Of a DNA stretch of 64,000 nucleotides, positions 1,771 to 61,318 are shown in pieces. Origin of the DNA: Takakia lepidozioides (Eukaryota; Plantae; Bryophyta). Each line of letters starts with the position of its first letter. Within the stretch, counting starts at the first letter, position 1. The notes beneath the pieces are model-generated. The model was not told the origin of the DNA. It worked only from the letters and a program-made list of their open reading frames with translations, and made no database searches. The stretch is from NCBI GenBank assembly GCA_030704615.1, contig CM060731.1, positions 74,214,001-74,278,000 of the forward strand, in the 5' to 3' direction. The position numbers were made by a program, and so were the translations under genes.

Positions 1771-4700
1771 CTACGTGCTAAAAACGCAGCTGAGTCCTAG
1801 ATTTGGCAACTCGAGGCTTCTTGTGCCTCCAGTTGAAGTCCACATCGTCCCCATCACTAGGGGATATCCCATGAATTGGGAGTGGAGACTTTCCAGTAGT
1901 ACTGCATGTTGGGAAGACAGGTAGTGCAAGGCCCATTGCAATTCCCCCCCCTGTGGTGGGGGTGGGTTGGCATTTCCTTTGTCATCAAGCACCCTTATGG
2001 GGTACAGAGATTGCTTGTGCAAATCCGCCTAGCCTGTCAGCTGCAGGTTGCCCTCACAGTCTGAAATGAACTGAATTCCAGAGGCTATCTGATCATTCAT
2101 AGAAAGGACCAGCATGACAGTATCACCTCCATTGGTTGTTGCAGCTGTCCAAGTTGGCAAGGCCTCCAAGTCACCTCCATTTCTCAGCAGGTCAGTTATG
2201 GAATCTGGCACGTCTGCAAGAAGAGAAGGCCATGCAGCGGCTCGTCTGGCCCCTACACTCTGTGTCACTGCAGCTGGAGATAGGTAACTGCCCTGCTCCC
2301 AAGTATTGCCCAGATGAGTAAGACCTTTGTGCTCCCAGAAGGCCCACTTTGGTCTTTGTAGGAACAATGTTTGCGAGTTGAAAACATTGTTCCAAAACAG
2401 AGGTTGTCGCCAGGCCTCTGCAAAGTTTGCTGGTGGTCTTTGAGTAAGCTTGTCCCTAAGAGACTGCCACGCAGCCCATATGGATTGCCATGGGCGGGAT
2501 CCCAAGTGCAGATTCACATTTTTCCCTTGAACAATCCAGCGAAGTGAATCTGCCCACAAGTGGGATGAAGAGGATTTGGCACCCATCAAGTAAGGCTGGA
2601 TCAATTTACTCCATGGTCTGTGACGGTGCGTAATGGCCCTAGGGATCCACTTGGCTAAAGAGCCTTGATCTGTGCCGCTGGATCCAAAATTGCAAGCCCC
2701 CCCTTCTTTTTGGGCTGGCAGAGTTGCTCCCAAGAAAGCAGAGCCCGTCTTACCGGAGTTTGCACTGTTGCGCCCCAGATAAAATTCCGAATAAGAGCTT
2801 TTATCTCTTTCACCATGGAGGTACCTGGGTCCCACACTGCTGCAGAGAACCAACAAGAGGCCAGTAGAACCTGGTTTGCCACCAGTGCCCGTCCAGCAAT
2901 TGAGAGCATGGAGGAGCTCCAGTGGGCAAGAGATCTTTTCAATCTGGAAAGTACGTTCTGCATTCTGCTCTGTTGGGACACATTAATTCCAACCTGATGG
3001 CCCAGCAGCGTGTGGGATTCCCCTTCCTGAAGCCATCGGAGGCCAATGTCTTCCCCCCAAGCAGCACAGTGAGTAGAGGAAGCTTGACTTTGCAACACCG
3101 AGAGAAGTCCCACCGACTTTCCCCAATTGATTTTCAAGCCACAACTAAGACAGAAAATGTGCAGGGCTTCAAGTGCATGATCAATGTTGTCCCGAGATGA
3201 ATTGTCCAGCAGTAAGGAGGTATCATCAGCATACATTGACAGCTTCACCATTTCCGGTAGGAAGGTAGGTAAATGAAGGCCCACAATGTCCTACCTGGCT
3301 TCAAACAAGTGCTCAAGAGAATCTGCCGCAATGAGAAAGAGGAAAGGTGCCAATGGGCACCGCACCCTTGTCTCACCGACCTAGAGATAGGGAAGGATTG
3401 GGAGATGACACCATTCACCATTACCTTACTAGAGGCAGACTGAAGAAGGATCCTTACCCAAGACAAGAACTGACCACTTAAACCTGTTTTTTCCAAAGCA
3501 GCGAGGAGGAAGGTCCAGTCAATAGAGTCAAAAGCTTTTTCAAAATCCAACATCAAGAAAGCAAGAGGCTGATTGTTCAGATTTGCCCGGTGAAGCGCTT
3601 CATGGGCCATCATGATGTTATCCAAGATCATACGGTCTTTAAGAAAACCGGTCTGCTCTTTTCTGATGATCTGAGGCAGCAAGGGCTGGATTCTCAAAGC
3701 AAGCGCCTTGGCTATAATCTTGTATGTAGAGTTGAGTAGGGTGATAGGTCGGTAGTTGGTTACGTTGTCCCTCTCCCCCTTTTTGTAGATGAGAGTGATA
3801 AGGCCTTCGGAGATCTGAGAGGACATCACCTGCTTCTGGAGGATGTCGTTGGTCATGCCCAGAAAGTCATCTCCAAGAGTTCCCCACAAAGATTGAAAAG
3901 CTCAATGGGCAGACCATCTGGACCTGGGCTTTTAAGAGATGCCAGGGCATCTACTGCCTTACCCAGCTCAGACTCAGTAAAGTGTTATGCTAACTTGGAT
4001 TTATCTGCAGCAGATAGGGCACAGAGTATATTTCTCAAGAGAGCATTAAATCTTGCTTCGTTTATCTCTGGAGTGTGTGTTTTTTTTTCAAAGAGTTGTC
4101 TGAAGAAGCCGGCTGCAATGGTGGCCATCTTCTTCGGGACAACACTTGGAATGCCAGCATCATCACGCAAAGAGGGGATCAAAGTAGAAGCACGACGCTG
4201 AGCAGCTTTAACAAAGAAATATTTAGACATTTTTTCCCCCTTCAGCGACCAATTTACCCCTGCCTTGACCCTAATGAACTGCTCCCTGGAATGTAACAAC
4301 AAAGAGAGATTCTTCTTGGCTGTTTTGTAGGAGATCATGGTTTGAGGGTCATCTCTACCTTCTTGAAGCTGGTACTGACAGACATGAAGGCATTTTGTGA
4401 GTGCCCTCTCTTTTCTGGAGGTGTCTTCGGCCTTTTTCCTAGACAATTCCTGACAGATGCCTCTCAACTTCTGTAGCTTGGATAGAAAGAGGAGAGTGGG
4501 AGAGGTGAAAGGTAGGTCAGCAGAGGACCAAACTCTTTGCAGCTCTAGAACAACCTCTGGGTCTTTGAGGAGGGAGGGGTTGAGCTTAAAGAAACCCCTA
4601 CCCTTTGCTCTTGTCCCCGGGGTGTGTAAAGAGAGATTGACAATGGAGTGGTCAAAACCAGGAGGCACTGGGGCCAAAGGGGATCTGACAGTCCAATTTA

Positions 4701-5379
4701 ACAGGTGCTCAGAGTAATAGATTCTATCTAGACGAGCCAGGGAGAGATTTGGAGACTCCCTGTTATTAGACCATGTAAATTTCAGCTCTCCCTCAGCTGG
4801 GGTGGTGGCGTCCAGCAAACCCACCGCCATGCATAGAGAGTCCCAAGAGTCTCTTTCAGCAACAGACAGGCCATGAACATTAGAACCGAAGCGATCATTA
4901 TCAAACTCCACCATGTTAAAATCCCCACCCACAATCCAATGTTGGATGTCACCAAGCTGCAACATTTTCAATCTTATAAGAGACCACAGCTCTATACGTT
5001 TCTCCTCACCATTGGGAGCATAAACATTTAACACCCCCACACTCCCAATCGCTGGACCCATATGCAGAACGACTAGTTGAACCCTACCCTGAAGCCATAT
5101 GTCATTAGAAAGAACAGAGGGCCCCAAGGAGGGGGAAATAAAAATTGCTGTGCCACCTCTAGTGTCAATGATCATGGGGTTCCAGAATGCGGAGGCAGGA
5201 GGCCACATAGAAGTCCCCACAGATGCAATTTTGGCTTGGTCGAGCTTATGCTCTTGGAGAAAGATTAGAGAATATTTGTTTATGAGATTGGAGGCCCATC
5301 TTCTGATTCTGGCCCTTTTTGGGGCTGAGTGATCAGATCCAATGCCACGGATATTCCACGTAGAAAGGTAGAAATTCAT
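1771..5379 (-). pseudogene. LINE ORF2: AP endonuclease plus reverse transcriptase, with frameshifts and a stop
   Basis: APE motifs STWNIRG, FLQEH, NVYAPN, GGDFNM, ARLDRIY, DH; RT motifs NYRPITLLN, LDFEKAFDS, VRQGC, YADDT; spread over ORFs 3985-5427, 3245-3889, 2655-3284, 2029-2856 and 1771-2022. Confidence 0.92.
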
Positions 5380-5534
5380 TGTACTGCCAGGGTAAGGCCC
5401 GCGTTGATCTCGCAATTTGATGGCCATGTAGGTAAGAATTTGAATTTAGTCCTTTTGTCTCAGGGTTGCAGCGTATTTATCCATTTAAAACCAGCAGGAG
5501 GTGGCAGTAAATCAGGTAGGTTCCACACAAAGAC

Positions 5535-6248
5535 CTATCTCGACTTCTTTCTTTTGCTGAGACATCCCAGTTCCAGGAATTGGTTCCTGCTATCTGTTAG
5601 CATAGAAAGATCTGACAGGGAGAGATGCCAAGAGAGCATTGAAGAGAGGTAGTCAACAACAAATTTTGAACACAAGATGTTGTATGATTCACACCATCCT
5701 GGTAGAATTTTAAGGGCAAGCTGTTGATGCTCCAGCACAAGGGTCCAGCCACGATTCCTGTTTGTCTCATCATGCACAAAGAAGATGAGTGGAGAGGGAG
5801 AAGAAGCATGAGGAAACATGCTTACCGGTGGGGGTGAGTCCACAGTTTCCTCGGGCTGTCCCATTTCTTCAAAGCATTTGCTAGCTGCATTGGATGAGAA
5901 CAACATGTCAGTGTCGTTATACAAGATTATTGCTCTGTTTGTGGGCTCCACCTCCCGGGAGATGTTGCTCTCTTGGACTGCCTGGTCTGCCAGGCCCTTG
6001 AGCTTTTGTAGGCTTGTAAGTTCAGCCACCATGCGCTGCCCTTCTTCCATGATTAAGGAGCTACGAGCCCAGGTGTTTGGGTCCTTCACCCTGCAAGGCA
6101 AGCCAAAGGCGTCTACCCACAGCCCTTTGTTTGGTTTGACCGTTATGTGCAAGTCTTTGAAATGGAAGATCGGAAGCACATGTACCACCGCCAGATTAAC
6201 AAGGGCATTGTTGTTTTCAACCATAATGCCTATGTTGTGGGCGTGAGA
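5535..6248 (-). pseudogene. LINE ORF1, C-terminal part
   Basis: Directly upstream of ORF2; removing 6249-22956 and one AGA restores the in-frame junction KEKDITLF-SHAHNIG. Confidence 0.75.
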
Positions 6249-7290
6249 CACTAGAAGAAAAACGCGGAATAACCACTCTGTTAACCATTCATTTTGAGTG
6301 GTAAAAGACACTAAACCACTCTGGCCCTAGAATGATGAAGAACCAGTGCATTAGGACATGTGAGTGGTAAAAGACATTACGTGGCACCGGTGGTTAAGGA
6401 CAGTGGTTCGAACCACTCACGTCCGGGTCCACCTGTTAGCTGACGTGTCACTGAGGTAAACCAACCACTTATGACGTGTCACAGTGGTAAACTGACGTGT
6501 CATAGTGGTAAAGTAACCACTTCCGTTTTGTAGTGGAGATGTGTAAGCCGGTGGTCCGTGGATGATATTGGAGATTATGTCGACACGTGGCGACACTCTC
6601 AGCATGGTCACGTGTCACGTGTCGTGTGTCAGTGCTACGAAATGGATGGAGTGAAAAATTCAATGACTTCCGAAACCACTTGTTGAGTGACCACAAAATG
6701 ACTCACAGAGTCATTCTATGAAAACTGAGAATATACAATATCACTCACAGAATGGGTATGTGAGTGGATGACGTCTCTCAGCATGTCATTGGAATGATTA
6801 CCCACAGAGTGGTGTGTAAGCTATTTGAGTCATTCATGGTGTCTCTCTGAGTGGGAACTATGGATTTGAGTCATTACCAACAGAGTGGTGTGTAAGTGAT
6901 TAGGAATACCACTGGAGGAATTCATACCACTAGTACAGTAATATATATGTAACTACTTATACCACTATACAAGTGATAATGTACGCAATTGTGTGCATTT
7001 GGCTACTCCCACGGTTTTAAATTATACCACTATTACAGTGATGTGCAAGTGATTATGAACATGACTAGAGGAACACATACCACTAGTGTAGTGTTTAAAG
7101 AAGTACCATTGGGGATTCAAGCTCCACAAAATAGAATAGAATCCCAGAGAGTTAAGTGCTGGAACACTGTCAACAAAATCCAGCCATGATAAAAACACTA
7201 GGCCTAACTTCTACACGGCGTCTCCGCATGCATGCTAGGACCGGCCAGATCCTCACGGACTTTTTTCCAAACATCTCCCTCTCTCTATCT

Positions 7291-7319
7291 CACTAGAAGA
7301 AAAACGCAGAATAACCACT
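7291..7319 (+). repeat. Second CACTA terminal sequence (nested or duplicated left end)
   Basis: cactagaagaaaaacgcagaataaccact differs by one base from 6249-6277. Confidence 0.8.
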
Positions 7320-7360
7320 GGCCCCCTTAACCACTATTGTCTTTTATCACTCTATAAATC

Positions 7361-7548
7361 TGTCGTGCGCATACATATCGCTACACAACTACATCGCTGT
7401 CCAAAACCACACAACACATGTGCACACCACACACTAGTATACCACTAGTCTACCACTAGTCCAGCCACTAGTCCAACCACTAGGCTACAACTAGTCAGTC
7501 ACTAGGCTGCCACTACGCTGCCCACTATGGCAGTCACTAGTCCACACA
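7361..7548 (-). repeat. Terminal repeat segment A, copy 1 (188 bp; U3-side part of the LTR)
   Basis: Appears identical to 7879-8066; contains tandem CCACTAGT motifs. Confidence 0.95.
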
Positions 7549-7549
7549 A

Positions 7550-8066
7550 TGATAAAGAAGAAGAATACAAGCACAAGCTCATGCGGGCTCACAAAGCTGA
7601 AGCATAAACTCATGCATATATAACCTCATCACTCAAATACAAGTCAAGCCAAGTGCACCCCACGCCATGGGGAATCCACACTACGGCGCCATAGCTAGGC
7701 GCGGTGAGGCTCAACTCGAGAAAGATGAGCCTCCCGCGCTTGCCGTGAAGATAACCACTCCAGGGCCTAAATCTGCCTTGACCCCTGGATTGACACTTGG
7801 GCCAATCCCAAATATCAATATGTAAAAACTAGCTATTTCCTAGCTAGTTTCACACTAGTGGTAAAATAACTTGACAGCTGTCGTGCGCATACATATCGCT
7901 ACACAACTACATCGCTGTCCAAAACCACACAACACATGTGCACACCACACACTAGTATACCACTAGTCTACCACTAGTCCAGCCACTAGTCCAACCACTA
8001 GGCTACAACTAGTCAGTCACTAGGCTGCCACTACGCTGCCCACTATGGCAGTCACTAGTCCACACA
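7550..8066 (-). repeat. Complete 3' LTR (A'-GC-B', 517 bp, TG...CA)
   Basis: On the minus strand it starts TGTGTGG right after the PPT and ends TTTATCA; made of A (7879-8066), GC (7877-7878) and B (7550-7876). Confidence 0.85.
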
Positions 8067-8077
8067 ATCGCCCCCTA
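8067..8077 (-). promoter_or_regulatory. Polypurine tract of the DNMT-gypsy element
   Basis: Minus strand TAGGGGGCGAT abuts the TG start of the 3' LTR. Confidence 0.7.
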
Positions 8078-8325
8078 GCTGGTGCTTAGGTCCCTCTAAG
8101 TCCAGGTAGCCACAAGATGTGATAGTGACCATAGCCTCACTAAGTCCTCCACCACTATCCCTACTACACTCAAACTCGATAGATCAAGAGGCCGGGTGCA
8201 AGAGTTGCCCCATCGTTAGTCGCCGTCTTGCAACCTGTGAACTTGAGCTTGGGATCTCATGTATTGACTCCTATGAGCTTGGCCTCCCATGTCTTGTTAG
8301 CTGCCTCCAGTCATGTCCACTGCCA

Positions 8326-11300
8326 CTATCCCAAGCAGTGTGGACACAACCAATCTCCGTCAGGAACCTTCTCAAGAGGTGGTGTCAAGCATCCCATATG
8401 CCAACCCCTTGAGCACCGATCACACACCAGCATGGTGGCTGCCCCTTTGGCAGACCCACAGAGCATGCACCTCAAACCTGCAGGTACCACTGCCAAGTTT
8501 GGGTCAACTCTGCCATCGACATTGGGAAGGTGACATGGCGCACAATTACGCACATGGTCTTTCCAAGTCATGCCATCCCGACCCTCTAAGATCAGGACCC
8601 CTGAGGGCAACACCTCTCGAACCCTCAGAATAACACGCCCTGCAGTAACATCCAGAGTCGTAGGAGCAGTCTGCTGCAAATAAACATAGTCACCAGGGCT
8701 AAACCTCCGAACCCCAGGACGATATCCTCCACCACGTATAGTGGCATACCTCAACGTATCACGGTGCTGTGCAATGGCAAGGTTCTCAAAAGCCATGGGC
8801 ATGACTTTCTTGAACAACTCTGCACGCTGATCACATGCACGTACCCACACGTCCGGATCGTCAAGGTTAAGGACTTGAGCAGTGTCCCTACGAATGGCTG
8901 CAGGCAAATCCGGCTCTCGGCCAAAGAGAAGGAAATATGGTGAGAAGGAGGCAAGTGATGCTTGTTTGCTGAACCTGTAGCCCATGGCTAACCAAGGAAC
9001 CTGAAGATCCCAATCTCCTAGGTGTCCCTTCTGCAAGCCATACTTGCGCAAACCCCTCTTCACCGTCTGAACAACTCTCTCTGCTAAGCCATCGGCCTCA
9101 GGATGATCCCGAGAAGTGGTGCGGTGGTCTATCAAGGCTTTATCACACAAAGCCTGAAACTCCCCAAGAACTCTCTCCCTTGGTCCGTGAGTACCTCAGC
9201 TGGAGCACCAAATCGGCTAAGCACACGATCAAAAAGAATGCATACGCAGCCCCCTCACTAGCCTTGTCAGGCAATGGAACCAACTCAATCCACTTGGAGA
9301 AGTGCTCCACCATCACCAACACATATCTGTGGTGGCGCATAGTCAGTGGCAACGGTCCTGCGAAGTCAAGACTCCACCTGTAGCCCAATCCCATGATAGG
9401 TAAAGGATGCAACTGTGGTGTAGGGGCGTTGAATGAAGCACGCACCCTGTCACACACCATGCACCTAGCCACAAACTGTTGCACCTCTGTATGCATACCA
9501 CGCCACCAATACTGCCCCTGCAGTAAACTGTGAGTGCGTCGCACTCCAAAATGCCCCAACTCCTCATGGGCATGCCGCACTAACCGTGCACGCTGTGTGG
9601 GGTGAGGCACAATCCTCACCCGACCATCCTCCCACACTCGAAGTAGGTGTATCCCCTCCCACTTGAACCTCTTGGCTCGTTGCAGGATCCGATCCCTCTC
9701 CCTGGCAGTCACAATGGCTGCCGTGTCTCCCGTGCGGAGGTAGTCCAACACAGCCGAATCCTCATGTATATCTCTGGCACCACCTAGCTCATCACTAGCC
9801 TCAGGGTCCTCAGACACTCCGTCTACAGTCATCCCTGTTGTAGGTCCAATCTGACCTCCCGATGCCAAGATACACAAAAATGCAGATGCGTGCCATCCCG
9901 GCACCATCTCCTCGTCCGTCTCACCATGCCACCGAGCTCCAGTGTCATCCTGCTGGCTCATGCATGGATTGCGACTCAATCCATCCGCATCCCGATTGAC
10001 CAAACCCGGTCGATGCACAACCTGAAAGTCATACTCCTGGAGTATAAGTGCCCACCGTGCAAGCTTCCCTGTAAGCTTGTCTGACTCCATCAACCACTTG
10101 AGTGGCTGGTGATCCGTGACAAAGGTGAAAAGATTGCCGTATAGATAGCACCTGAAGTGTGCCACGGCCCACACTGCAGCTAAGCACTCTCCCTCATATG
10201 AGCTGTACTTAGCCTCTGCAGCGTTGTTCGAGCGGCTAGCGTAAGCCACTACGAACTCTCTTCCCTCATCATCCACCTGTGTGAGCACCGCTCCAAGCCC
10301 CAGCATGCTCCAATCCGTATGCAGCTGAAAGGGACGCCCCCTGATAGGTCGTCTCAAGATAGGCGCCGAGGTCAACCTCGCCTTGAGCTCTTGAAAAGCT
10401 CGTTCCTGCTCATCTTCCCACTGCCACTCCTGGTCCACCTTGGTCAGCTTGGTTAGAGCCTTTGCAATGGTACTAAATCCCTTGACAAACCGTCTATAAT
10501 AGTTTGCCAACCCCATGAAAGCTCGAACTCGGCTCACATCCGTGGGGCGTGGAATTTGTGCAATGGCCTCTACCTTAGTCTGCTGTACCCCCAATCCTCC
10601 AGGATATATCATGTGACCCAGATACTCAATCTGGTTGTGGAAAAACTTGCACTTCCCCGGATGCAACTTCAATCCGTGCGCTCTCAAGCGCTCCAATACC
10701 ACCTGAAGGTGTCTCTCATGCTCCTCCATCGTAACACTAAAGATGATGATGTCATCTATGTAGCACCGAGCAAAGTCCACCCCTGCTAGAATCCTATCCA
10801 TGACTCTCTGAAACTCTGCAGGAGCATTCTTAAGCCCAAATGGTAAGAACCGCCACTGATATAGGCAATCCTTGCCGTGTTCATTGATCCCCCAGAATGT
10901 CGTCTTCTGCTTGTCCGCCTTCTTGATTGGCAACTGGTGATATCCGGATCGTAAATCCAAAGTGCTAAAGGCCTTAGCATGCCCGATGGCATCAAAGATC
11001 TCCTCTGGTGTTGGCATGGCATACTTATCGGACTTGGTCTGACGATTTACAGGCCGGTAATCACCGCACATACGTCTCTCCGTCCAATTGCCATAGACAT
11101 CCTTCTTGGCTGGCATCACTGTGGCTGAAGCATACTCTCCACCAGAGAGCTCCACCAAACCTGCCTCCCAAAGATCTTGAGTCCTCATCTGAATCAAAGA
11201 CCTCTCCATGTCACTGTATCTATAGGGTCTCCGAAAGATTGGCGTGTCAGTGGCCAACTCAATACGGATCTCTTGACCCTTCAGTGCTCCCAAGTCCTTC

Positions 11301-11449
11301 AAACTGAAGGCAAAGCAATTCCTGTAAGCCCTCAGGAACCGCCGTATACGTCGTCTCTCTCCTCCGGTGACAATGGGTCCAATGTCAGGCTCCCAATTGT
11401 CCTCCGTAACTACAACCTTAAGTCCAGTGGGCTTAGAGGTAGAGGACAC
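8326..11449 (-). pseudogene. pol: RT, RNase H, DDE integrase and C-terminal PHD finger (frameshift near 9150-9240)
   Basis: [21 protein letters not shown]; TDWS...ECLA...TDH; HHCC HEELGH...CMVC; LDFAGP and DGLAER; PHD CMLC...CDRC...HMGC...WLCPHC. Confidence 0.95.
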
Positions 11450-11749
11450 GTCCCGTGGTTGCTATGCTGCAACCTCTTGAGCAGTACTCCCTACCTGCTC
11501 AGTCAATGACAAGGCATCATCCTGCCCCATCATCTCATCCTTGAGGACCTCCTCAACTTGAGAAGAATCCCCAACCTCATCCATCACAGCCGCCTTGGCT
11601 GCCAACTCCCTCTGAACCTCGAGCACCTCCCACGTGTGCCATGGATGCATGCACCCCGTGGTCCTCATATGCTCGCCCCCACTCACTGCCTGTACCGTCT
11701 CGGTAGGCAGAGAGACCATTGAGGGAAGTGTATTCCGCACTCTGCGTTG

Positions 11750-12720
11750 CTCAGCTAGAGCCAAGCTGATAATCCAGGTCAAGCAATTGAGATCCATTGC
11801 TTGCCCCAACACTTGACGACGTGATGCCTCAGAAAGAGACAACACCGCCGTGGTACCAGTGGTAAAACCCATTGTCCGCTCACGCTCGTCAGCATTAGGC
11901 TCCACTAACTGCTGCAACTGAGCATCCCACAGGAGGCCAGGTCCACTATCCCGGAAAGCATGCGATCCTGGGAAGCTGAGCAGTGTAGGTAATGCTGCTC
12001 GTGGTTGACCCACCTTGTTGACCACTGCCAAAGGCGAACGGTCATCGTGTCTCACACGTTGAGACTGCCTCCCTGTGTCCAGAATGTTATCCACTGTGAG
12101 ATGTGCTGGCCGCTGCACCCCATCAAATGCACGCTTGAGCAGTGCGGGTGGCATCATGTTAGTCCACCATAGCCATGGACGATGAGCCCGTGACCCCACT
12201 GTAGCTGCATCCAACAACACTGCTGACCCAAGCCACGACCGGACTTGATGCACACTGGCCATCACCCTGGCCCGAGAATGCCCATCAGTGGCACATTCTC
12301 CAAGATGTATGCTGGAGATACAGCTTGATGAAGCTGCAAGTGGCGCAAAACCCGCACCATCTCCCAAAACAGACCCGACCTCGAGTCTCGCAATCCATTG
12401 CCATGCCCGGCTGATGAATGCCCTTGGCAGGGCCAACCTGCCACTACCAGATCAATGGAGCCAACCCGCTCCAAATCCTGCGCCCCCAGCAACGAAATGT
12501 CTGCTGGCAAGGCCTGCTGATATCCACGAATTGTAGACACCGACAACACTCAGGGTACCGCTGCACCAACTGAGCAACATGGCGAAGTGAAACGCGTCGT
12601 GCAGTCTTATCCCTCTTCCACATACAGGTAACGCCGAACTCGTACACCTGCCTGTAACACAGCAGCCAATCCGGTGCTGATCCCGCCAAACAAGTCCAGA
12701 AGACAAATGCCTTCATCCGG
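11750..12720 (-). pseudogene. C5 cytosine DNA methyltransferase domain (DNMT3/Dcm-like) within pol
   Basis: Ordered motifs: I LLDLFGGIS (about 12680-12705), IV DLVVAGWPCQGHS (about 12415-12455), VI ILENV (about 12293-12308), VIII AHRPWLWWTN (about 12158-12187), IX ERERTMGF, X LGQAMD (about 11792-11809); split over three frames. Confidence 0.92.
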
Positions 12721-13059
12721 AGACTGCCACACAATAGGTGTGGTGTCCAATGGAGACAATTGAGGTGGTCCTGGTGCAATCCCCACATCTCCTCCTCTCC
12801 TGACGTACAAAAGCCTCCACCCAGGCTTGTTGGCACCCGTCGATCAGCATCCCGCTGCAAATCCTTGCTCGTGCCCCACAATGGAGTCTGAGCAACCATG
12901 GTAGGCAACTCCGCCATACCATACATGTCATCCTGCTCTCCCGGAGGTGGTACATCCTCTGAATGAGCATTGCCCTCAAGCAACTCTCTAGGCCAATTCA
13001 CTGCCGCTGTGAATGCTGCAAGTCGGCATCTTGCCTCGCTGGGCAACCGCAACTCCTCC

Positions 13060-13500
13060 TATGAACATCACAGGGAGCTGCACACGCCGGCCCTCCCCTG
13101 ACTGCCATGCAGGCCTATAGGAAGCTGACTCCTCCCAAAAATCCAGGGTGAAGCCCATGGGGTACAACACTGCCCCACCAACCAGGACGTCGTATGAGAC
13201 TGCGTCTGTCACAATGGCCTTGGCTCGCATCACTGAGCATCTATCGGGTTGATCCGGCCGTAGTCTGATAGCCAACTCATGCCGTGTCATGCCGCCGAGC
13301 CTGGCTCCGATCCTCCCAGAGACGTCTGTATCTGGAAAAGACAAGGCTCCATATCCGCCTCCGTGAGGTCCAAGCCTGCAATAGCAGCTCTGCCCAGCAT
13401 CAGTGGCTGAGCTCCCGAGTCCAACAAGACTCGCAGTGGCCGGTACCTCTTGCCTGCCGGTCCACTCAAACAGAAAATGCCATCCTGGTTGTCTAACATG
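13060..13500 (-). pseudogene. Retroviral-type aspartic protease (frameshifted)
   Basis: PLRVLLDSGAQ catalytic motif and downstream YDVLVGG motif. Confidence 0.85.
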
Positions 13501-14188
13501 ACAACTCCAGGTGTCCCATGGCGCGCTCAATGGCTGGGCCTAGCTGGCAGCTCCATCACCTGGCAGCTGCAGCTTGCCATGGGCGCCGCCGTGCAGTCTT
13601 AACCCTCAAATCCGAGGATCCCTCCGGCACTACACCTCCACTATCTCCGCAGAAGATGAAGTAACCTCCCCTCTCACAGAGTGTAGCTGCCAGCCTGAAC
13701 ACCTCAGCTGGTCTTACCCCCGGCGTCGCAATCATGGTAGCCGAGAACAATGGAGCCTGGCACACAGATGTGGCGCGCCTAGCAGCACACTAGCTGCCGT
13801 AGCCTTGGCAACACTAGGTAGTGGTGCTACCCGTGTAGCTCTCCCCAATGGCATAGTAACCTCCGCCTCGGTAACAGTCGGGCGAGAACTAGGTGCCATG
13901 GATGGCGTCGACACTGTCTCCGCCAATGTGAATGACTGAGGAAGCCTAGCCTGACGGCTTGCCTCCCCACGCTGTGGATCCAACTCCACCTCTGCACCTC
14001 GTGGCTCAGGAACTCGTGCTGCTCCTCGAGTCACGGCTGCAGCAGACTCCACCTGCACTAGTGGTAGTGCTGCTCCACACATGAATCCCATGCCTCCCAT
14101 ATCTCCTCCCTCAGGAGCAGGAGGTGGACCATCCGGCCTTAGAGAGCCGGTACCACCTGAGCTGTAGCCATGGCAGCGAGCCTCTGCT

Positions 14189-15820
14189 CTAGCTGCTGAA
14201 GCCGGTTGGCCATGCCTTGGTCAACACCCCTGACCTCCGCGTCCTTGGCCACGTTGAGCTTGCCCTTGGCTGCACCTCGTGGCTGGCCACCTCGTCCCTC
14301 TGGGCTGCTCCACCTCGCCCCCGGCCACCATTGTTCCCTTGGAACTGGCCTGGGCGCAACTCAGGATGCAAACCATAACACTGAGCCTCTCCATGCCCGT
14401 GTTTGCCACAATGCCCACACTGTAACTGTGCAGGCTGTGCATGTGCCGGCCCTTTGCCTCCCTCTGGCAATCCTTCTTGACATGGGGTCCTCCACATGTC
14501 CAGCACACCACATCCGCCCGTTGTTGGCCAGCAAATGAAGGGAGAGACCCCTGCATCTGAGGTCCTCTCTGCCCTTCCCTGAGCTTCACCTGAGCCCCCT
14601 TGTTGCCTTGAGCACGTTGAGGTGGTGGTTGGCTAGGAGCACCACTACCCCGTGGTGTCTCCTTAGCAAATCCCACCATGACCACTCGTTCCTCCACCAT
14701 GTTGAGCTCTATCCGCTCTGCCAGCAAAAACACATTTGCTAAGGTGGGTTGGGCCGCTTGTAGGAGAGTTGCATCCCGCACCCTTCTCCTCAGCTCCTTG
14801 TCCAATATCCCATACCAGAATTGGACTGCCTGAGCTTCCGTAACCCCTTGGGTTACATTTATCAAGCGCCTCATGCGAGTGAAAGCCTCCCTCAAGCTCT
14901 CGGTCGGCTTCCGTTGGAACTCTTGCAAGCTCCGCAACTTCTCTGTCCTCACCCCTTGGTAGTTCCCTCTCAACTCTTCGAAGAACTCCACAACAGGGTT
15001 GAAGGCAGGCACGGGTGCTAGTGCTGGTGCGGTAGTGGCTTGGGTGGACGTCGTAGCTACTGTACCACCAGTCCCACTGCTGCTTGCTGAGCTGCCGGTG
15101 CAGCGGCAGGTGTAGCCACTGCCCTCGTGGCTCTAGTGCCCCTAGTGATGGAGACATAGTCGGGTGACCAGTACATCCTCCACTCCTCGATCTCAACCTC
15201 ATGCCCCCGCCTGAACTCATGGTAATCATCCATAGGCGGCCCCTCAAGGTGCTGAAACAGCCCCTTCCATGCCATGAAAGGCGTAAATAGTTGTGGATTG
15301 CGCATTTGCTGCAAATCACACCAACTATCAAACTCTTGGATAAAATCATCCAACTCGATGGTGCCCACCGCCCCAGAGTACCTTCGTGGCCCCTTGGTAG
15401 CTCCATACATCTCCTCCATTGTGTCCCACAACAATGGCAAAGAAACAACTTGCACCCGGTATGAGTCCTCCTGATTCACAATCCGAATCAGAACCTTCCG
15501 TAGAAGACACAGGAGGTGAAGGTGGCCTAAACCGCACACCTCGTCTCGTGTACCCACTAGTATCGCTAGTGCTCGAACCGGCACTGTCCCCAGCAACTAG
15601 TGGCACCTCCGTGTTGACACTCAACCGGTCTCATGAACATGTCCCTAACCCCCTCTCCACAAGGTAACCGGGTAGAGAACCTGCGGCTTATGGTTTGGAA
15701 TACTAAGTTCCTAACATAGCCTACACCTGTACCTGCATCCACCGCAAGCACTCCTATGGTTGGCTGGTCATCACCTCCAACCTCACCACAGGGAGAAACA
15801 ATGATGGTCTGGCTGGTCAT
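14189..15820 (-). pseudogene. gag of the DNMT-gypsy element (frameshifted), with two zinc knuckles
   Basis: Capsid-like YSGAVGTIELDDFIQEFDSWC and FQRKPTESLREAFTRM; knuckles CWTCGGPHVKKDC and CGHCGKHGHGEAQC. Start position uncertain. Confidence 0.8.
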
Positions 15821-16299
15821 CACCCCAGCCTCACCATCGACAGCATGCTCTAGGACTGGCCGGTGATCAAATCCGGACCAATCACTATAAAAACAAGCGC
15901 CCACACAAAACTAGCATGGCGCACAGTCAAGCATGCAGGTATGGAGGGGATCCAAACACAAGAAATCAGAACGACAACTCCCCCCACACCAAAAAAACAA
16001 CTCCACGGTGTTGCTCCTGCAAGGACACCCCAGCCCAAACCGGACTGACTCTTGCCTCCACCTACGGAAAGGTCTTGGCCTAATGAGAGGGTGGAAACTA
16101 CGAGGAAGAGAAGCTAAAGCAATGCCTAATGCATGCCCTCATCCCAACACTCTTCCTCTCCTCTCTTCACCTCACCTGGGGAATCATGAATACTCCAACC
16201 GCCCTCCACGAGCTTCAAATTCGGCCTTCCAGACCACATGCCAGTCCTTAGGCAGTCCACCAGTGCCTCCACGAGTCAGCACAGGCCGTCCACAGGGTG

Positions 16300-17320
16300 G
16301 GCCACCAACAGACCAGCACAGGCCCACACAGCTCACTGGTCACACGTCACCACAGGCCACTAGGCACAGTCACAGCTCGTCACAGCCTGCCGCACAGCCT
16401 GTCACAGAAACAGCCAAGGCCTCAGCACAGCCCCAAAGGCCATGGGCACGGCCTGTCACGGCCCCTCACAGCCCGTCACAGCCTCAAAGGCCTCAGGCAG
16501 GGTCACAGCCCTCCAAAGGCCTCACGGCCTCACAGCCCCTTCACAGCCCAAAGGCCTCAGGCGCGGCCTGTCACAGCCCTCACAGCCGTCACAGCCCCAA
16601 AGGCCATGGGCACGGCCTGTCACAGCCCCTCACAGCCCGTCACAGAGGCCTGCCTGTCACAGCCACAGCCCGTCACAGCACCCCTCAGGCCGTCACAGCC
16701 TCAAAGGCCTCGGGCACGGCCTGTCACAGGCCCCTCACAGCCGCAAAGGCCTCAGGCACGGCCTTCACAGCCCCTCACAGCCCTCACAGCCCAAAGGCCA
16801 TGGGCACAGCCTGTCACACCGTCACAGCCCCACAGGCCTGGGCACAGTCACAGCCCCGCACAGCCCCACAGGCATAGGCAGCCTGTCACAGCCCCATCAC
16901 AGCCCATCACAGCCTCAAAGGCCTCAGGCACGGCCTGTCACAGCCCCTCACAGCCTCACAGCCCCAAAGGCCAGCACAGCCACATCACAGCCCCCACAGG
17001 CCTCACAGCCTGTCACAGCCCCAAAAAGGCCACTGGCACAGCCTATCACAGCCTGACACAGCCGTCACAGCCCCACAGGGCACAGGGCACAGCCTCACAG
17101 CCCATCACAGCCCACAGCTTGCCACAGCCCGTCACAGCCCGTCACAGCCGCAAAGGCCTCAGGCACGGCCTGTCACAGCCCCCACAGCCCATCACAGCCC
17201 CAAAGGCACACAGCCTGTCACAGCCCGTCACAGCCCCATCACAGCCCCACACAGTCACAGCTCACAGCCTATCACAGCCCATCAGCCTGTTGCCACAGCC
17301 CGTCACCCACAGCCTGGCAC
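16300..17320. repeat. Degenerate CACAGCC(C)/AAAGGCCTC satellite in the 5' leader of the gypsy element
   Basis: About 1 kb of short interleaved units such as tcacagcccc, gcctgtcacag and aaaggcctcagg. Confidence 0.9.
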
Positions 17321-18835
17321 ACATGGCCGCTCTGGCAGTTTAGCCATTTCTCCAAGGGGTTTAGCCACGCCAAGCTAGGGTTTGTGTCTCTTGGACTCTA
17401 GGCTTCTTTCCACCGAGCTATGGTGGCTGTGAGGAAATCAGCAAGGTATCCTTGCTCTTTCGGCTCCCACACACCACCATAGTAGCCCTAAGCCATGAGG
17501 TGGTTGCCACAAACCAAGCCTTCTTTCTCACTTAGCCTCCCCAAACACGCCACTAAACTCAATGGCAAACAACCAAGCCCTGCTGGTTCCCAGCCCTTGT
17601 GAGCACTCATTCAAGCACTCTCATTGGCCATAACATCTGTCTTAGAGCCTATTCCAGCCCTCTACACCTGTTGCTTCAAGAGTTGCGCTCCCTTCAAGCT
17701 TGAAGTTGAAACCCCAACTCACATAGGCCCTACAAGTGCTTTTCTTTCACTCCAAGTGGAAACCAGCCCTAGACCTTCCGTTCTAGCTCTCTAAGGCTTG
17801 AAAACAAGAGCCTCAATGGGCTGAAGGCATGCTCCACACATGCCCCACTCTCACCATAAGAGAATCAGCTCATTTGCTTCATTTCTTGCATCCACAAACC
17901 TGAAAATACAAGCTTCAGCAGGCTGAAAGCATGCTCTACATGCCCTACAGGGAAACCAGCCCCTTCCTTCCTTCCTTGCACTCCCACACCTAAAAGTGCA
18001 AGCCTTCACCAGGCTGACAGCATGCTCCACACATACATTGCCCTCATAAGGGAAGTCAGCCCTTCCCTCTTCCTTGCTTGCCCTCCAAGCTTGAAGATGG
18101 AAGCTTCAATGAGCTGAATACATGCTCCACACATGCAACCTCTTCACACAGAGATATCAGCCCCCTATCTTGGCTCCTTGGCTCCTTGATGCTCTCTATG
18201 ACAAACTAAGCACTCCATAGCCTTTGCCAAGCTCCTGAAACCCTAAGGCTTACATTTCCAGCCACAAGACACTTCTTGTGGTGCAAGAACTCTTCTTCCA
18301 AGCTCTGAAACCCTAGGTGCACATTCCATGGCCTTGCCGCACCTCTTAGCTCATGTTCCAGCCCTGCTCTTGCCATGACAAGAGCCCTCTCAATGCTGAA
18401 GCTCGAGATTGAAACCCAATCTCACCATACTCCACAAAGTGCACTGATTTGCCCCAAGCAAAATCAGCCCTTTCGCTTGGTCTTGCAATCCTTCACACAA
18501 TGAAAGCTCGCATTCCCAAGTCCAGTTCTCAGCTTTGCCACCAAAGCCACTATAACCTGCTCTTGACTGGTCCTCTTCCCAATCGTGCTTGCTCATGCAT
18601 GTACACAATCTGAAACCATCAAGGTGCTCTGAAATTACCTGCAGCATGGTGCTTTCATCTCTGAAGCTGAAGATCGAATGCCAAGGTCTACCACCTCGTA
18701 ACCCACATCGCCTCCGCTTCTAACAACCAAGAGCTCCATGGTGCTCCTTGCATAACAACTTGGTTTCTCTCAATCTCAAGCAAAAACCACAAGTGCTACA
18801 ACTAACTCGTATCTAGCACTCATAGATACGAGCTG

Positions 18836-18847
18836 ATCTTTCTCGAG
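18836..18847 (-). promoter_or_regulatory. Primer-binding-site position, self-complementary (non-tRNA) type
   Basis: Follows the LTR CA end, lacks TGG, and 18836-18848 is the exact reverse complement of 19012-19024 inside the LTR. Confidence 0.6.
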
Positions 18848-19174
18848 TGATAAAGAAGAAGAATACAAGCACAAGCTCATGCGGGCTCACAAAGCTGAAG
18901 CATAAACTCATGCATATATAACCTCATCACTCAAATACAAGTCAAGCCAAGTGCACCCCACGCCATGGGGAATCCACACTACGGCGCCATAGCTAGGCGC
19001 GGTGAGGCTCAACTCGAGAAAGATGAGCCTCCCGCGCTTGCCGTGAAGATAACCACTCCAGGGCCTAAATCTGCCTTGACCCCTGGATTGACACTTGGGC
19101 CAATCCCAAATATCAATATGTAAAAACTAGCTATTTCCTAGCTAGTTTCACACTAGTGGTAAAATAACTTGACA
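18848..19174 (-). repeat. Terminal repeat segment B (327 bp; the only LTR part at the element 5' end)
   Basis: Appears identical to 7550-7876. Confidence 0.95.
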
Positions 19175-19896
19175 AATCACTCCAAGTAATGGTAACCACT
19201 GGTCAGTGGTTAATTCTGATGAAATGCCACGGTGGCAAAATATGGAGTGGTTGGAAGTGGTTTCAACCACTGAGTAATCCACGTGTAATATGTAATTTTA
19301 TATTTATTATTCGACATTTGGTCAAATATTTATATTAATAATGATAATATCCGACATGGACGGGTACAGTGATAAATTATGAGTGGTTAAAGACACCTCA
19401 GTGATAGGAAGTGGTTGAAACCACTTTCTACTCCACGGGGTAATAATTTGTTTTAAGATTTTTATCATTTCAAAATATATTATTCCACGTGGACGAGGAT
19501 AGTATTGGAGTGGATAAAGACCCCCCAGTGATTGGTACCACTTGCATAGTGGTGGAATGTGAGTGGTTAAGACCCTTTTGTAACTGGAACCACTCTTCAA
19601 GTGGGCACTTGTGAGTGGTTACATACACGTGAGTGATTGGTACTACTTCTAGGATGGTTGTGAGTGGTTGAAGACACCTCAGTGATGGGAGGTGATTGAA
19701 ACCACTTGCTACTCCACGTGTAATAATTCAATTTTTATTTAAGATTTATCATTTCAAAATATATTTAATTATGAACTATATTATTCCACGTGGACGGGGA
19801 CAGTATACGTAGATCTGGAGTGGTTAAAGACCCCCATTGATTGGTACCACTTTGAGAGTGGTGTAGAGTTAGTGGTTACAGACCATTTAGTAACTG

Positions 19897-25769: not shown

Positions 25770-26870
25770 CTGGTACGATGCACAGCTAGCAGGCTAGAAC
25801 TGCACCAATCTGAACATCTAGCAGTTAAGAATCCCACGAACGATGAGATCCAGCTTCCACCTCTCGTCTCTTCCTTGATCATCAGCGGCCTCCCACCTCG
25901 ACAGCAGAGCATGTTTCATGTTGAAGCCGAGGAACGCCTTCTAAAAATTGCACGGCACTGGCAGGTCAAGTCGTTTGAAGTGTATTGTCGTCTAGCCGTC
26001 TCGTCTTCAGCGTTCTGTTCAGCGGAACCGTCAGTTGTGATCGTCTTGTAGCCATCTGTATGGTGTTCGCCCTGGCATTCATGTTGGATGATCTTCTCTT
26101 TGATTCGCCAAACGACTTGTACCTCGAGGGGTATGGCATTGATCGCAGCATCCGTGAGAGCCCTCACAAAATCGGAGAGTTCCTCCACAACTTGGACCTC
26201 TCTTCATGCAACAAGAGCCTCCGTGCGATCCCACCCCGATCGAGGGGATGATGTGGGGGAATCGGGTCAGGATTTGAGACGCTTGTCCACCCCGGGATGG
26301 TTCAATAATTTTGCAGACTCTCTCCGCGAGCACCACAGAGTCACCCTTGCCAGCCATGTCGACGTTCTAGGCGACCGCTTTAAATATAATTTGCAAGAAG
26401 ACTTGGAGACTTTCACCCAAATGCGCGCCTGGAACTCTGGAGGCTTGTTTAGTCTGAATCTCGTGGAGTTGGGCAAGAACGCCTTTCTTCCAGACGAGAT
26501 TCGTGCGCAAAGCATGATGCAACAGCTGACCAATGCGGCGTCATTCGGCCACTTTCGTCAACGATTTTCTCCTACCCCAAGGAGATGCAGGAGGAAGACA
26601 ATCCGCGCAATCTAATCAAGGGTTGATGGAAATCTGAAGGCACGCTGCTACCCCAAGCTGCGTGGAGAGCCGTCGACTTGACGAACTCTACACTCGCTCG
26701 TCTTGGAGCTGGAGACGCAGTTGGCCGTGTGGACGCGGAACCTGGCGCCTTTGCTGTGCGCCGCTACGTGGAAGGTGTGAAGGAGCTTCTGTCTGGCCAT
26801 ATTCTGGAGCAGCCTGAACAAGCGCTACCGGCACCCGACTCAGTTTTCCAGAGCTCAGGGCCATCACCAA
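25770..26870 (+). pseudogene. Microbial terpene synthase-like (MTPSL) gene, copy 1, frameshifted
   Basis: LDDLLFD aspartate-rich motif, RAWNSGG, disrupted ND.FSYPKE (NSE motif) and WSSLNKRY (WxxxxxRY) followed by HPDSVF; no introns apparent. Start uncertain. Confidence 0.85.
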
Positions 26871-29800
26871 TGTCCATCACCCACTGCAATGTCAGATTTA
26901 GAACGTGATCAGATGCAGCTGCATCAACTTTGATATCTTTTACCCAAACACTGAGTCACAATGTCGACCATATATGTCAGCATGCTTGAAGTGCACAGGA
27001 GGACTTGATATATTTTCATGTACATGTGATAATGTAATGCAACTGGTGTTACTCATAGCAACGTTTGTCTATATTAGAATAACGATTTGGATTCTGCATA
27101 TATGATGCTGCTGCTTTTGATCTGCCATCTCATGTTTTAGCAAAGAAAAGAAAAAGGAAATGGAGAAGCGGAGAGGAGCGAATCGGACTAAGTTTGTTGG
27201 ACTAGAAAAGAAAAGCAAATTTCAATTGTGGATCAGGTTCCAGTGTTTTTGTACTTGTATCCCTTGGGCCCTTTGGCTCTCCTGTGGATGTAATACAAAA
27301 CATCTCTTTCTCTTTCTTACTGTATTGGTCCTGTGGCCCTGGGTGGGGTTCATGATGGACTCAACAAGGTTTCTCTCTTTTTCACAAATGTTTGGCAGCC
27401 TACCTGCACGAGGCATTCACCCTTAGACAATCACTAGAACATTAGTTCTTATCTCTCTGGCTTCCTGTTTCCTCTCATGTTTTTCTTCCCATTTTGTCTA
27501 TGAGCTTTCCGCGGACATTATAAAGCACCATTTCATTTCATTTCATTTCTCTTTCTTTCTTTCTTTCCTTCACCCCGTTTTGGGTCCATGGTGCTTCTAG
27601 TTTGCCCTTGTACCTTTACTTTGCCCATGGTCCCTAAGGCCCCATAAGAGGTAACAAATTTCTTTCATTCTTATTTCTCTTTGCCCCATGAACATATTGC
27701 CCAATTCTCTTCTCTTCGTTTTCTCTTGTAGTTCCAATATGTGCCATGTAGTTCCTGTGTGGACATGATGAATCTCATTTCTTCCTCTTCTCCTCAATGT
27801 TGTTTTAAAGAGTTTTCTTGAGAAATTTTGGCAGGCCAGAATCTGTATTAAAAAGGGTAGGTCTCTCTATTGGAGGCACATTCCTACAGCGAACACACCC
27901 ATCAATGTCCTATCAATGAGCGTTTGTGATCTGTGGCAAGACTCCAAGAAGCACAGGTACATCAGTAGTCATCTTTCTCTCTGGCTGTTTCCTCTTTCAT
28001 GGTCCACAAAGGGGAAGATCGTAGGTCGAACTACTGAAGCAATTTCCCTCCAGTAGCAAGGTTTGCTTATATATACCAGTCATGCGGAATGTGGGATGTG
28101 AACTCCATCAATGCTGTTCACCCCAGGCATCATATTTACAAGGATGCCAATTATCCCTTCGTTGCATGTTTTGGGTGGTAAGTGCACCCCGGTCTTGAAA
28201 TTCGCTCTGTTTCTCCAAACTTTTTTTGTCTAGATTCTAGTTTGCTCAGAGTGGTTTGTCCTGGAAGGCCTTCTGGGATCACCTGAAGCAGCAGCCTCCA
28301 TAACTCCTAGTGACATCAGAACTGAGAATTCGTACCGTAACAACCATTGTCCTCCGTAACTCCCCCTTTGCGCCCAAGTTTGCTCCTGATAAGACCTGCT
28401 TCTACAGTAGTCTTAGCAGACTAAGAAATCAAGCTCTTTAGAGGAAATCAGTGGCGTGGCAGCTTGCTCTGATGGTCTGTATCTTGAAGTATTATCCATG
28501 GGTTTCAATAGTATCTTTGATGAAGGGGATGAAACCCAGGCCATGCCTTCAGGGCAATTTCAACACTATATCTTGCACATGTGTCAATAGTTATAACCTA
28601 CTCCCCAATCTCGTTGGCTGCAAAAAGCAGCCAACTCACCCTGACACTGTGGAGTAGGAAGTGTTCTGTTATGGTTTTTGGCAAACAAGTGCCAGTATGT
28701 TAGTTTGTTGGTTCTCTGAGCACTTTAGTCCTTTTTAAATGAACATACAGGCTCCATACAGACTCCACAATGTATTCTTTGTCTTTGCTTCCAGGGTTTG
28801 GCTGCTGATGCTCCCACAGTTCCATCTCATTGTTCCCTGTCTTGCCTTGCAAAGCGCTGGAAGGCTGCAAGGGATTTTGCGACACATTGGCAAACACACT
28901 CATCGAGTTCATCAGTAGACAATCCAGAGGTCTATCAGATCAAGTGAAAAGGCTCCAGTTCAATTTCATCCAGTGCAGAGGTCGAAGTCGAAGATCAATT
29001 CACTTTCATCTGTTCAGCCCACTCCATTTCACCGTGCAGCTAAATCACATTGGCATGGGGTTGTACATACTACATCTCCTAAAAATTTCTTGCATTCAAA
29101 TTGCAACGGCAAAACTTCTGAATTTTTTAATAGATGCACCTGCATTTCCGCTCCCAATAGGTGTCTCCTGGTTTCCATGGGTAACTGTAAGCATCCATAT
29201 CCTACATCCCTTTCTTTGTAGGCTAGCTTGCTGGCTAATGTTGAGAGCTCTCTTCCATGACCTTACCTGTGAGTCTATTGCTTCCTGGTCTCTCTCTCTC
29301 GTTATGTCAAGCTTGCTTTCCTTTACCTTTCTTTCTTCTCGACCACAGCTTTCTTTTCAGGTTGAGTTTCATACACCCTGGTGGGATGAACCCCGACAGG
29401 CTCTTGGAGGTTATTAGCTTGTGGGGACTGCACCCTCTAATGGTATAGTCGTGCGCACATACTCTCTCTCTCTTGGCTTCTGGGCTGCTTTTGGCTGTGA
29501 TTTTGTCTCTTCTTTCTGGTTTCTCCCTTTTGTACCATAAGCTCTTTGAGATTTCCACGGAGGTTATAAAGTACCATTTCATTTCATTTCATTTCTCTCT
29601 CTTTCGTTTCTATAGTGTCTCTCTCTCTCTTACAGCCCAATTGCTTGTCTACACCACTCTCTCCATCTCTTCTATGGGCATTGGAAAGGTTCAGGTTGGG
29701 ATCCCAGCCTGAGGATGGAAACTGGTAGATGATGGGTTAATCTGCAGTGTTGTGAATGCTTGTACCCTGCGTGTGCCAGGGAAGACAGGCAGGGGATTGG

Positions 29801-30049
29801 GGCTGAGGAACATTTCTTCTTCCACTATCCACTATATTATGGAATCAGGGCCTGCTACTACGACCTGTTCAGAGACAGAGGTCTTTCTTTCATCATGAGG
29901 ATCAGTTATACCTGGCTGCATATCTACATGAAGCTCTCACCCTTTGCAAATCTCCTGATTCCGAACAGTGGTTTTTGGGCTGCTTGTAGAGGGCCCCTGA
30001 CTTTCTTCTTTCCTGCCATGCTTTGCCGCGTTATTAGGCATGCCTTGGA

Positions 30050-55065: not shown

Positions 55066-55067
55066 CT

Positions 55068-55079
55068 TGGTATCAGAGC
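55068..55079 (+). promoter_or_regulatory. Primer binding site for tRNA-iMet
   Basis: TGGTATCAGAGC, 2 nt after the LTR. Confidence 0.95.
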
Positions 55080-61313: not shown

Positions 61314-61318
61314 CACAA

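Follow-up and report, generated by a model that had tools for sequence, protein, structure and literature searches.

Retrotransposons that carry a C5 cytosine DNA methyltransferase (DNMT) are known from Klebsormidium and from dinoflagellates. In Klebsormidium nitens, the Gypsy element KnitGypsy-Dnmt3 contains a Dnmt3-like domain with a Ka/Ks under 0.2 (de Mendoza et al. 2018, PMC5890265). According to the available text of that paper, the domain was assigned to the Pol ORF and seen as an acquisition of the K. nitens lineage, and a figure legend gives the repeats of the element as the 'same as a DIRS retrotransposon'. The domain produced no methylation in yeast, a result that the authors deem inconclusive (PMC5890265). 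In the same source, the Dnmt3 domains of SymbioDIRS elements carried out de novo CG methylation in yeast; its species table includes Physcomitrella and Selaginella and not Marchantia.

A review by Morozov et al. (2019, PMC6338049) holds that methylases carried by transposons do not occur in 'land plants, such as tracheophytes'. Sarre et al. (2025, PMC12344493) treat DNMT3 embedded in retrotransposons 'in streptophytes and dinoflagellates' as an earlier finding, and the supplementary trees of that work could include bryophyte copies. The available texts of bioRxiv 2021.11.30.470311, PMC9033089, PMC9940879, PMC8557442, PMC6453930 and PMC11982613 do not report a family of the type described below. 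Our search of the open literature, with subscription papers, theses and repeat databases outside its scope, found no DNMT-bearing retrotransposon of a land plant.

In this study, we analyzed a stretch of 64,000 nucleotides of Takakia lepidozioides DNA (the window). It contains what we take to be a recent, broken copy from a family whose Gag-protease frame ends in a DNMT3-like methyltransferase. The reading we favor, and consider reasonably probable, is that this enzyme is packaged at Gag-like amounts and methylates new cDNA before integration.

A Ty3/gypsy element with a methyltransferase domain

The element (Table 1) has the domain order Gag-PR-DNMT-stop-RT-RH-IN-PHD. The Gag-PR-RT-RH-IN order, the Ty3-type reverse transcriptase (RT) and the DDE integrase are those of Ty3/gypsy elements, as are the TG...CA termini with a short target-site duplication; two complete, directly repeated terminal LTRs are absent, and the repeats are split instead. 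The best solved match of the RT is Ty3 RT (E 2.3e-72), and the Gag remains are 49-79% identical to pieces of the Marchantia protein P0007. A preliminary description of this DNA had overlooked the in-frame stop, the PHD finger and the split repeats. The tandem array, about 1 kb long, lies in the 3-kb leader of the element, where sister contigs have deletions. No tRNA gene was found within the 64-kb window.

Table 1. Features of the Takakia element and their positions in the window
Feature	Position	Strand	Evidence or remark
Whole Ty3/gypsy element, 11814 bp, ends TGTCA...CGACA	7361..19174	-	repeats, termini, depth step, flank-joining contig
4-bp target-site duplication, element 5' end	19175..19178	.	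termini; empty-site contig in run X5
4-bp target-site duplication, element 3' end	7357..7360	.	termini
Repeat A1, 327 bp	18848..19174	-	100% identical to A2
Putative self-primer stretch inside A	19013..19028	-	15/16 complementary to primer-binding position
Primer-binding position, self-complementary type	18832..18847	-	directly after A1
Degenerate GC-rich tandem array, long 5' leader	16327..17306	-	
Gag remains (capsid, zinc knuckles), several frame breaks	14160..15596	-	PF03732 weak, E 0.0022
Aspartic protease (LDSGA), broken	13060..13574	-	PF13650 weak, E 0.048
DNMT3-like C5 cytosine methyltransferase domain	11738..12723	-	motif scan, PF00145, profile, homologue fold
In-frame TAG, then CAA CCA; closes Gag-PR-DNMT frame	11456..11464	-	likely readthrough signal
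RT, RNase H and N-terminal integrase part	9233..11461	-	one open frame
Rest of integrase, then C-terminal PHD finger	8329..9233	-	frame breaks near 9230 and 9165
PHD finger at integrase C-terminus	8335..8469	-	PF00628, E 4.3e-11
Purine-tract-like CTAGGGGG, directly before B1	8069..8078	-	recurs before B in related loci and in L070 and L071
Repeat B1, 190 bp	7879..8068	-	100% identical to B2
Internal junction CACGACA-GC-TGTCA	7872..7885	-	both terminal att-like ends, 2 bp apart
Repeat A2	7550..7876	-	
Repeat B2, element 3' end	7361..7549	-	

The preliminary description had reported a C5 methyltransferase with ordered motifs on the strand of the element, between the protease and RT of a Ty3/gypsy element, and this is confirmed: a genuine DNMT3-like enzyme domain lies there. 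Its motifs follow one another in canonical order, I (LDLFGG), IV (GWPCQ), VI (ENV), VIII (AHRPW), IX (ERERTMGF) and X (LGQAMD), with protease remains upstream and RT, RNase H and integrase downstream. The piece with motifs IV to VI matches PF00145 significantly (E 3.9e-13; 50 bits, with the cut-off at 22). Taken singly, the motif I piece, the C-terminal piece and the middle frame gave no Pfam match, and the C-terminal half of the domain, used alone, gave none in Pfam or the PDB. With X at the frame breaks, the domain aligns over 317 residues with uninterrupted homologues, including ones from Calypogeia and Marchantia, at 73-75% identity, which excludes chance for the assignment. Because the homologues align end to end, no intron is needed, as had also been claimed.

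By profile and by the predicted fold of a homologue, the methyltransferase appears closer to DNMT3 than to DRM, DNMT1, DNMT2 or bacterial enzymes. The family has motifs I to X in order, the catalytic Cys, the Glu of ENV and the two motif VIII Arg residues of DNMT3-type enzymes. Against the PDB, its profile matches DNMT3A at E 4.8e-16, DRM at 5.5e-10 or weaker and bacterial enzymes at 2e-5 or weaker. A fold based on a 12-sequence alignment was poor (pLDDT 57.5), and a 74-sequence alignment was used instead; the predicted fold of P0008, a homologue 73% identical to the Takakia copy, reached pLDDT 92.8. Its nearest structures were DNMT3B (Z 29.1, rmsd 2.6, 279 aligned) and DNMT3A (Z 27.8), followed by M.MpeI (25.6), DNMT2 (21.8-22.5) and DNMT1 (19.0); Foldseek matched it to DNMT3A/B at E 3.7e-19. 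A search of the ESM Atlas returned nothing beyond generic PF00145 clusters.

To judge from its sequence, the Takakia copy is dead, and no active enzyme could come from it. Three frame breaks, near 12617, 12548 and 12280, split the domain over four frame pieces. Trp replaces the second motif VIII Arg, which 142 of 146 family members have; the catalytic Cys, the Glu and the first motif VIII Arg are retained. These breaks probably exist in the genome and are not artifacts of assembly: a second LTR element in the window has an unbroken frame of 1542 codons, and at the same places many sister contigs cease to match or vary in length.

This second LTR retrotransposon (54342-61314, plus strand) lacks a DNMT and has 725-bp LTRs that are 100% identical; its single open frame encodes Gag-Pol with a chromodomain. 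It is far less CpG-depleted than the DNMT element and lies just before a PPR gene spread over two frames (61553-63200, plus strand). A broken LINE with AP endonuclease and RT frames occupies about 2030-6330 on the minus strand. Terpene synthase genes of the Terpene_syn_C_2 type lie in an inverted duplicate (25984-31230 and 48578-52364, about 90% identical); such microbial-type terpene synthases mark non-seed plants. Tandem pectate lyase genes (39017-39736 and 43932-44897, plus strand) have their best named matches in Sphagnum (80% identity) and Ceratodon (71-72%), and in a tree of 57 sequences they form a clade with sequences of these genera (support 0.997 on the branch to the rest). This moss placement is loose, because no fern, lycophyte or hornwort was named among the 120 hits listed. 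The embryophyte host that had been proposed agrees with the grouping of the pectate lyases with moss sequences and with the microbial-type terpene synthase and PPR genes; taken together, the genes point to a non-seed land plant, likely a moss.

Range, conservation and layouts of the family

A search with the C-terminal half of the domain gave 32 proteins, most of them with gag or protease in front. The best hits from Calypogeia, Marchantia, Riccia and Sphagnum were 62-76% identical; two Sphagnum models were lower, at 45% and 51%, and Monoraphidium was also among the relatives. The Marchantia models (P0003, P0005, P0007, P0009 and others) are annotated as hypothetical proteins or DNA methyltransferases. 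P0007, which is Mp4g09160 of Marchantia polymorpha, has all motifs in one frame; for six of the Marchantia gene ids, no paper was found in the open literature. A profile search yielded 476 clusters at E up to 1e-30. We examined 30 proteins, 28 of them from the best 150 of the 476, and the seven named clusters among those examined were from Closterium (3), Klebsormidium nitens, Mesostigma viride, Cymbomonas and Scenedesmus. P0369 is labelled as part of a Candidatus Obscuribacterales genome bin and is probably plant DNA in that bin. P0231 also carries a G-patch, and a PHD finger was found in 14 of the 24 proteins scanned.

Close relatives thus occur in Marchantia, Riccia, Calypogeia and Sphagnum, and those in Klebsormidium, Closterium, Mesostigma and chlorophytes are more distant. 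Among the 32 hits and the best 120 of 268, none bore the name of a vascular plant, which does not imply absence from vascular plants, and no relatives were found in viral contigs. The preliminary description had mentioned DNMT retrotransposons from dinoflagellates and Klebsormidium. These had indeed been described already (PMC5890265, available text), and the family is widespread in bryophytes and green algae, not limited to the present host.

Scanning of metagenomes gave 283 confirmed stretches, the best 80 of which were retained. In these, gag or protease lies upstream in 53 of the 57 loci with room for it, RT, RNase H and integrase lie downstream in 51 of 52, and a PHD finger is present in 27 of 28.

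Substitution patterns indicate that the DNMT domain is kept under purifying selection across the family. Near-invariant catalytic residues include the Cys (145 of 146), the Glu (146 of 146) and the motif VIII Arg residues (143 and 142 of 146); motif IV has Glu-Cys in 69 and Pro-Cys in 66 of the 146. In comparisons of the Takakia domain with 15 loci, synonymous sites are near saturation, and dN is 0.20-0.30 for 11 closer loci and 0.42-0.46 for four distant ones. Between L070 and L071, dN/dS is 0.135 for the DNMT and 0.044 for RT and RNase H.

Two layouts occur among the 57 sequences with both DNMT and RT domains. The DNMT precedes RT in 8 (the Takakia copy, L070, L071 and five others) and stands between RNase H and integrase in 49, Scenedesmus included; the two layouts form separate RT clades (support 0.87 and 0.93). 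The RNase H-DNMT-integrase clade is large, with P0227, P0161, P0175, P0180 and others, and Scenedesmus as its named member. In trees of the 57 sequences, built without host DNMT3, 12 of 16 strong RT splits recur in the DNMT tree and none is in conflict.

Split repeats and the mode of insertion

The repeats follow the order A1, ORFs, B1, GC, A2, B2 (A-ORFs-B-A-B), with AATC duplicated outside. The element is recently inserted, as is evident from the full identity of both repeat pairs and from an empty-site contig. This contig, of 308 bases in run X5, joins 7295-7360 to 19174-19420; with 97-98% identity, it could come from a close paralogue or from the allele of a different individual. At 7361, read depth in runs X2 and X5 goes up about 70- to 95-fold within 50 bases. 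Run X2 contains 19 contigs with unlike flanks at the outer end of B, and the inner ends of A and B lead into uniform sequence (18 of 164 loose ends listed). In run X8 (organism B), no contig matched the 3' end of the element, which is no proof of absence.

Similar arrangements were found in related loci. The A-X-B-A-B form is also that of L031, a member of another family; L041 and L063 have B-A-B at the 3' end, and 4-bp duplications are present in 5 of 6 related loci with both ends. The junction CACGACA-NN-TGTCA recurs in L031, L033, L063, L070 and L071; an opposite-strand control gave 0 matches in 642,658 bases. A stretch resembling a purine tract, CTAGGGGG, stands before B1 and not before A2. 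Complementarity links the first 10-16 bases after A1 to a stretch in the middle of A. It is found in the Takakia copy and, although the letters differ, in 11 of 18 related loci (control, 16 of 1800 10-mers), and in a family of related loci the stretch in A lies about 32 bases after TATAAA. In two families the predicted pairing is kept although the sequence differs; a minimum-energy fold of the primer region did not form it.

We read the repeats on the basis of the standard LTR scheme and of self-priming of the Tf1 type. A primer site after A1 and a purine tract before B1 would then mean an ordinary cDNA with B+A as its LTR. This arrangement suggests that the true LTR is B+A (B-NN-A) and that the split form may have come from an opened two-LTR circle. 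Self-primed reverse transcription would make the ordinary LTR of B+A, the ends of the cDNA would be joined into a two-LTR circle, and the integrase would open the circle at the internal CA-NN-TG site. A cut of the 5' LTR at CA-NN-TG, with a 2-base stagger, would yield exactly the inserted form, with ends like those of integrase 3' processing. The Takakia copy was probably mobilised in trans by an intact sister.

It is also quite possible, if short of probable, that the split repeats were copied from RNA, as has been proposed for PAT and Ngaro elements: the transcript would extend into B2, and template switches would rebuild both ends on linear cDNA with no circle opened. Only four A2|B2 junctions were seen, and the three that are precise agree with copying from RNA, while the fourth, with filler DNA, argues against it. 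A single permutation also fits; the other one, A-B-A-ORFs-B, equally expected from a symmetrical circle, was absent among the mapped 5' ends. Copying from RNA is harder to reconcile with the primer site and purine tract that define the B+A cDNA, and with the constant 2-bp spacing of the att ends in lineages diverged to saturation at synonymous sites.

Copies that end at B1, without A2-B2, were seen at L019, L021, L022, L025, L026, L032, L035, L053-L056, L066 and L068. They could be one-LTR-circle products, B-B recombinants or the result of assembly collapse. An origin from one-LTR circles was not adopted: L022 and L063 have a flank in common and yet are of different form, and this favors assembly collapse or B-B recombination.

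The stop codon, the role of the enzyme and known systems

UAG-CARYYA is the readthrough signal of TMV-type plant viruses, and we take the TAG CAA CCA of the Takakia element to match this context. The TAG (11462-11464) ends the DNMT frame, and RT is next in frame. We surveyed the best 80 of the 283 metagenome loci together with the Takakia copy, and 60 had both anchors. A stop, TAG in 40 and TAA in 15, lies 10-30 codons before the RT anchor in 55 of the 60. It is followed by CAR-YYN in 52 of these 55 and by exact CARYYA in six (the Takakia copy, L026, L029, L070, L071 and L075). In 44 loci the stop is followed by CAACCC and then ATG, so that reinitiation is also possible there; these 44 look like one family and are therefore not independent. 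The first Met after the stop is codon 3 in this family, 14 in L070, 85 in the Takakia copy and 117 in L071. L071 is intact, with open frames of 1369 codons (Gag-PR-DNMT) and 1047 codons (RT-RH-IN-PHD) and a single stop between them. Several gene models of Marchantia, Calypogeia and Sphagnum end at about the same place, and P0160 has DNMT and RT in one frame without a stop. We found no report of UAG-CARYYA readthrough in retrotransposons in the open literature.

Since the DNMT stands at the end of the Gag-PR frame before a conserved stop, it is likely made at the Gag level and packaged. Most ribosomes would terminate after the DNMT and a minority would read through UAG-CAR-YYN into RT and integrase, so that the frames suggest a DNMT made with every Gag and a Pol made by readthrough. 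The packaging proposed in the preliminary description gains indirect support from the place of the domain at the end of the Gag-protease frame, from which we still infer it. In 49 of the 57 elements, the DNMT follows RNase H and would be made at the Pol level, which counts against the Gag-level reading there. Inside the particle, the protease would free the enzyme. The cDNA would be the only double-stranded DNA present, and the new copy would arrive already methylated, probably at CG. The PHD finger, which resembles PHD1 of KDM5B and KDM5A and the fingers of ATXR5 and PHF21A, would steer integration to chromatin with unmethylated H3K4, presumably the ligand here as it is for those proteins. 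CpG depletion was rejected as a sign of self-methylation, for it is not specific: at codon boundaries, the observed/expected ratio is 0.39 in the pol of the element and 0.74 in a nearby chromovirus without DNMT, and a LINE has 0.30 and a host PPR gene 0.46.

A broader proposition is that an ancient Gypsy lineage of green plants, from chlorophytes to mosses and liverworts, packages an active DNMT3 at capsid stoichiometry by means of a leaky stop, and that its DDE integrase opens a two-LTR circle at CA-NN-TG. As a whole we put it forward tentatively and regard it as rather doubtful.

Action of the enzyme after or outside reverse transcription, on the insertion site, sister copies or host chromatin, for self-restraint or for competition with other elements, we think unlikely. 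A protein made at the Gag level would be plentiful and not bound to remain inside the particle, the integrase has a chromatin reader in its PHD finger, and such roles are listed by de Mendoza et al. (PMC5890265, available text). However, the DNMT itself has no targeting domain, and fusion to Gag or Pol, in either layout, keeps it with the cDNA. It is more improbable still that the domain is kept for something other than DNA methylation, such as binding or methylating element RNA or serving as a structural part of the particle. The inactivity of the Klebsormidium domain in yeast, inconclusive for its authors (PMC5890265, available text), and Glu-Cys in place of Pro-Cys in motif IV of half the wider family would fit such a role. 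The catalytic residues, in contrast, are all near-invariant, the predicted fold is nearest DNMT3A/B and not DNMT2, and the Symbiodinium DIRS domains methylate CG (PMC5890265, available text). A one-off capture of a host DNMT3 or DRM cDNA by the Takakia copy, for which the broken state of that copy might speak, is refuted by sister contigs that cover the DNMT about as deeply as RT (summed depths in run X2 of 0.72-1.19 million and 0.99-1.21 million, which are not copy numbers), by the same layout in dozens of loci and four named genera, by a motif order not permuted, unlike that of DRM, and by the lack of a DUF3444 match in the frames scanned (plant DNMT3 architecture in PMC6453930, available text).

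DNMT3-bearing Gypsy elements as a kind were already known from KnitGypsy-Dnmt3 (PMC5890265, available text); the membership of land plants, the wider range, the position of the stop and the permuted LTR were not found in print in the open literature. Methyltransferase-carrying retrotransposons are extended into land plants, from which they had been called absent (PMC6338049, available text), and the findings suggest that the Klebsormidium case belongs, as one branch, to a lineage extending across green plants. Several gene models of this type exist in Marchantia polymorpha, so that what a transposon gains from its own DNMT is testable in a genetic model. Because of such models, DNMT counts in annotations of bryophytes can also come out too high. 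The position of the stop and the anatomy of the repeats lead to two testable mechanisms, packaging of the enzyme at capsid level and integration from an opened LTR circle. If the latter is true, LTR circles, usually held to be dead ends, would be a substrate for integration.

Among known systems, PAT, Ngaro and TOC1 elements have split direct repeats in the order A-ORFs-B-A-B, and the Takakia element shares this repeat order. Unlike them, it has a DDE integrase, TG...CA ends and a 4-bp target duplication. The tyrosine recombinase and missing target duplication of DIRS, PAT and Ngaro elements are not its features, and no tyrosine recombinase was found in the element frames scanned. These split-direct-repeat retrotransposons are mentioned in PMC8557442 (available text). 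With REM1 and Gypsy-7a_cRei of Chlamydomonas, the Takakia element has in common a green-lineage Gypsy structure with a PHD finger; the available text on Gypsy-7a_cRei gives no methyltransferase for it (PMC9940879). Mammalian DNMT3A and DNMT3B are the best sequence and fold match among solved structures, at about 22% identity. Compared with these and with bryophyte DNMT3 (PMC6453930, available text), the enzyme of the element lacks PWWP, ADD and DUF3444 and lies within a polyprotein. SymbioDIRS-Dnmt3 and SymbioLINE-Dnmt of dinoflagellates likewise have a retrotransposon-borne C5 methyltransferase (PMC5890265, available text), but belong to other retrotransposon orders (tyrosine recombinase, LINE) in an unrelated host.

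The closest system is KnitGypsy-Dnmt3, with which the Takakia family shares an intron-free, non-permuted Dnmt3-like domain in a Gypsy polyprotein frame under purifying selection; its description makes no mention, in the available text, of an in-frame stop, a PHD finger, self-priming or a repeat mechanism (PMC5890265). The Klebsormidium protein GAQ93235.1 (P0259), a candidate copy of that element, contains a knuckle, protease and DNMT, with its end immediately behind the DNMT, so that its protease-DNMT layout is that of Takakia. The two DNMT domains are only 36% identical, and the host here is an embryophyte. In a midpoint-rooted DNMT tree, built without a host DNMT3 outgroup, P0259 falls on the Takakia side with support 0.98; the RT trees are without Klebsormidium. 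The Takakia family is most likely the land-plant branch of KnitGypsy-Dnmt3.
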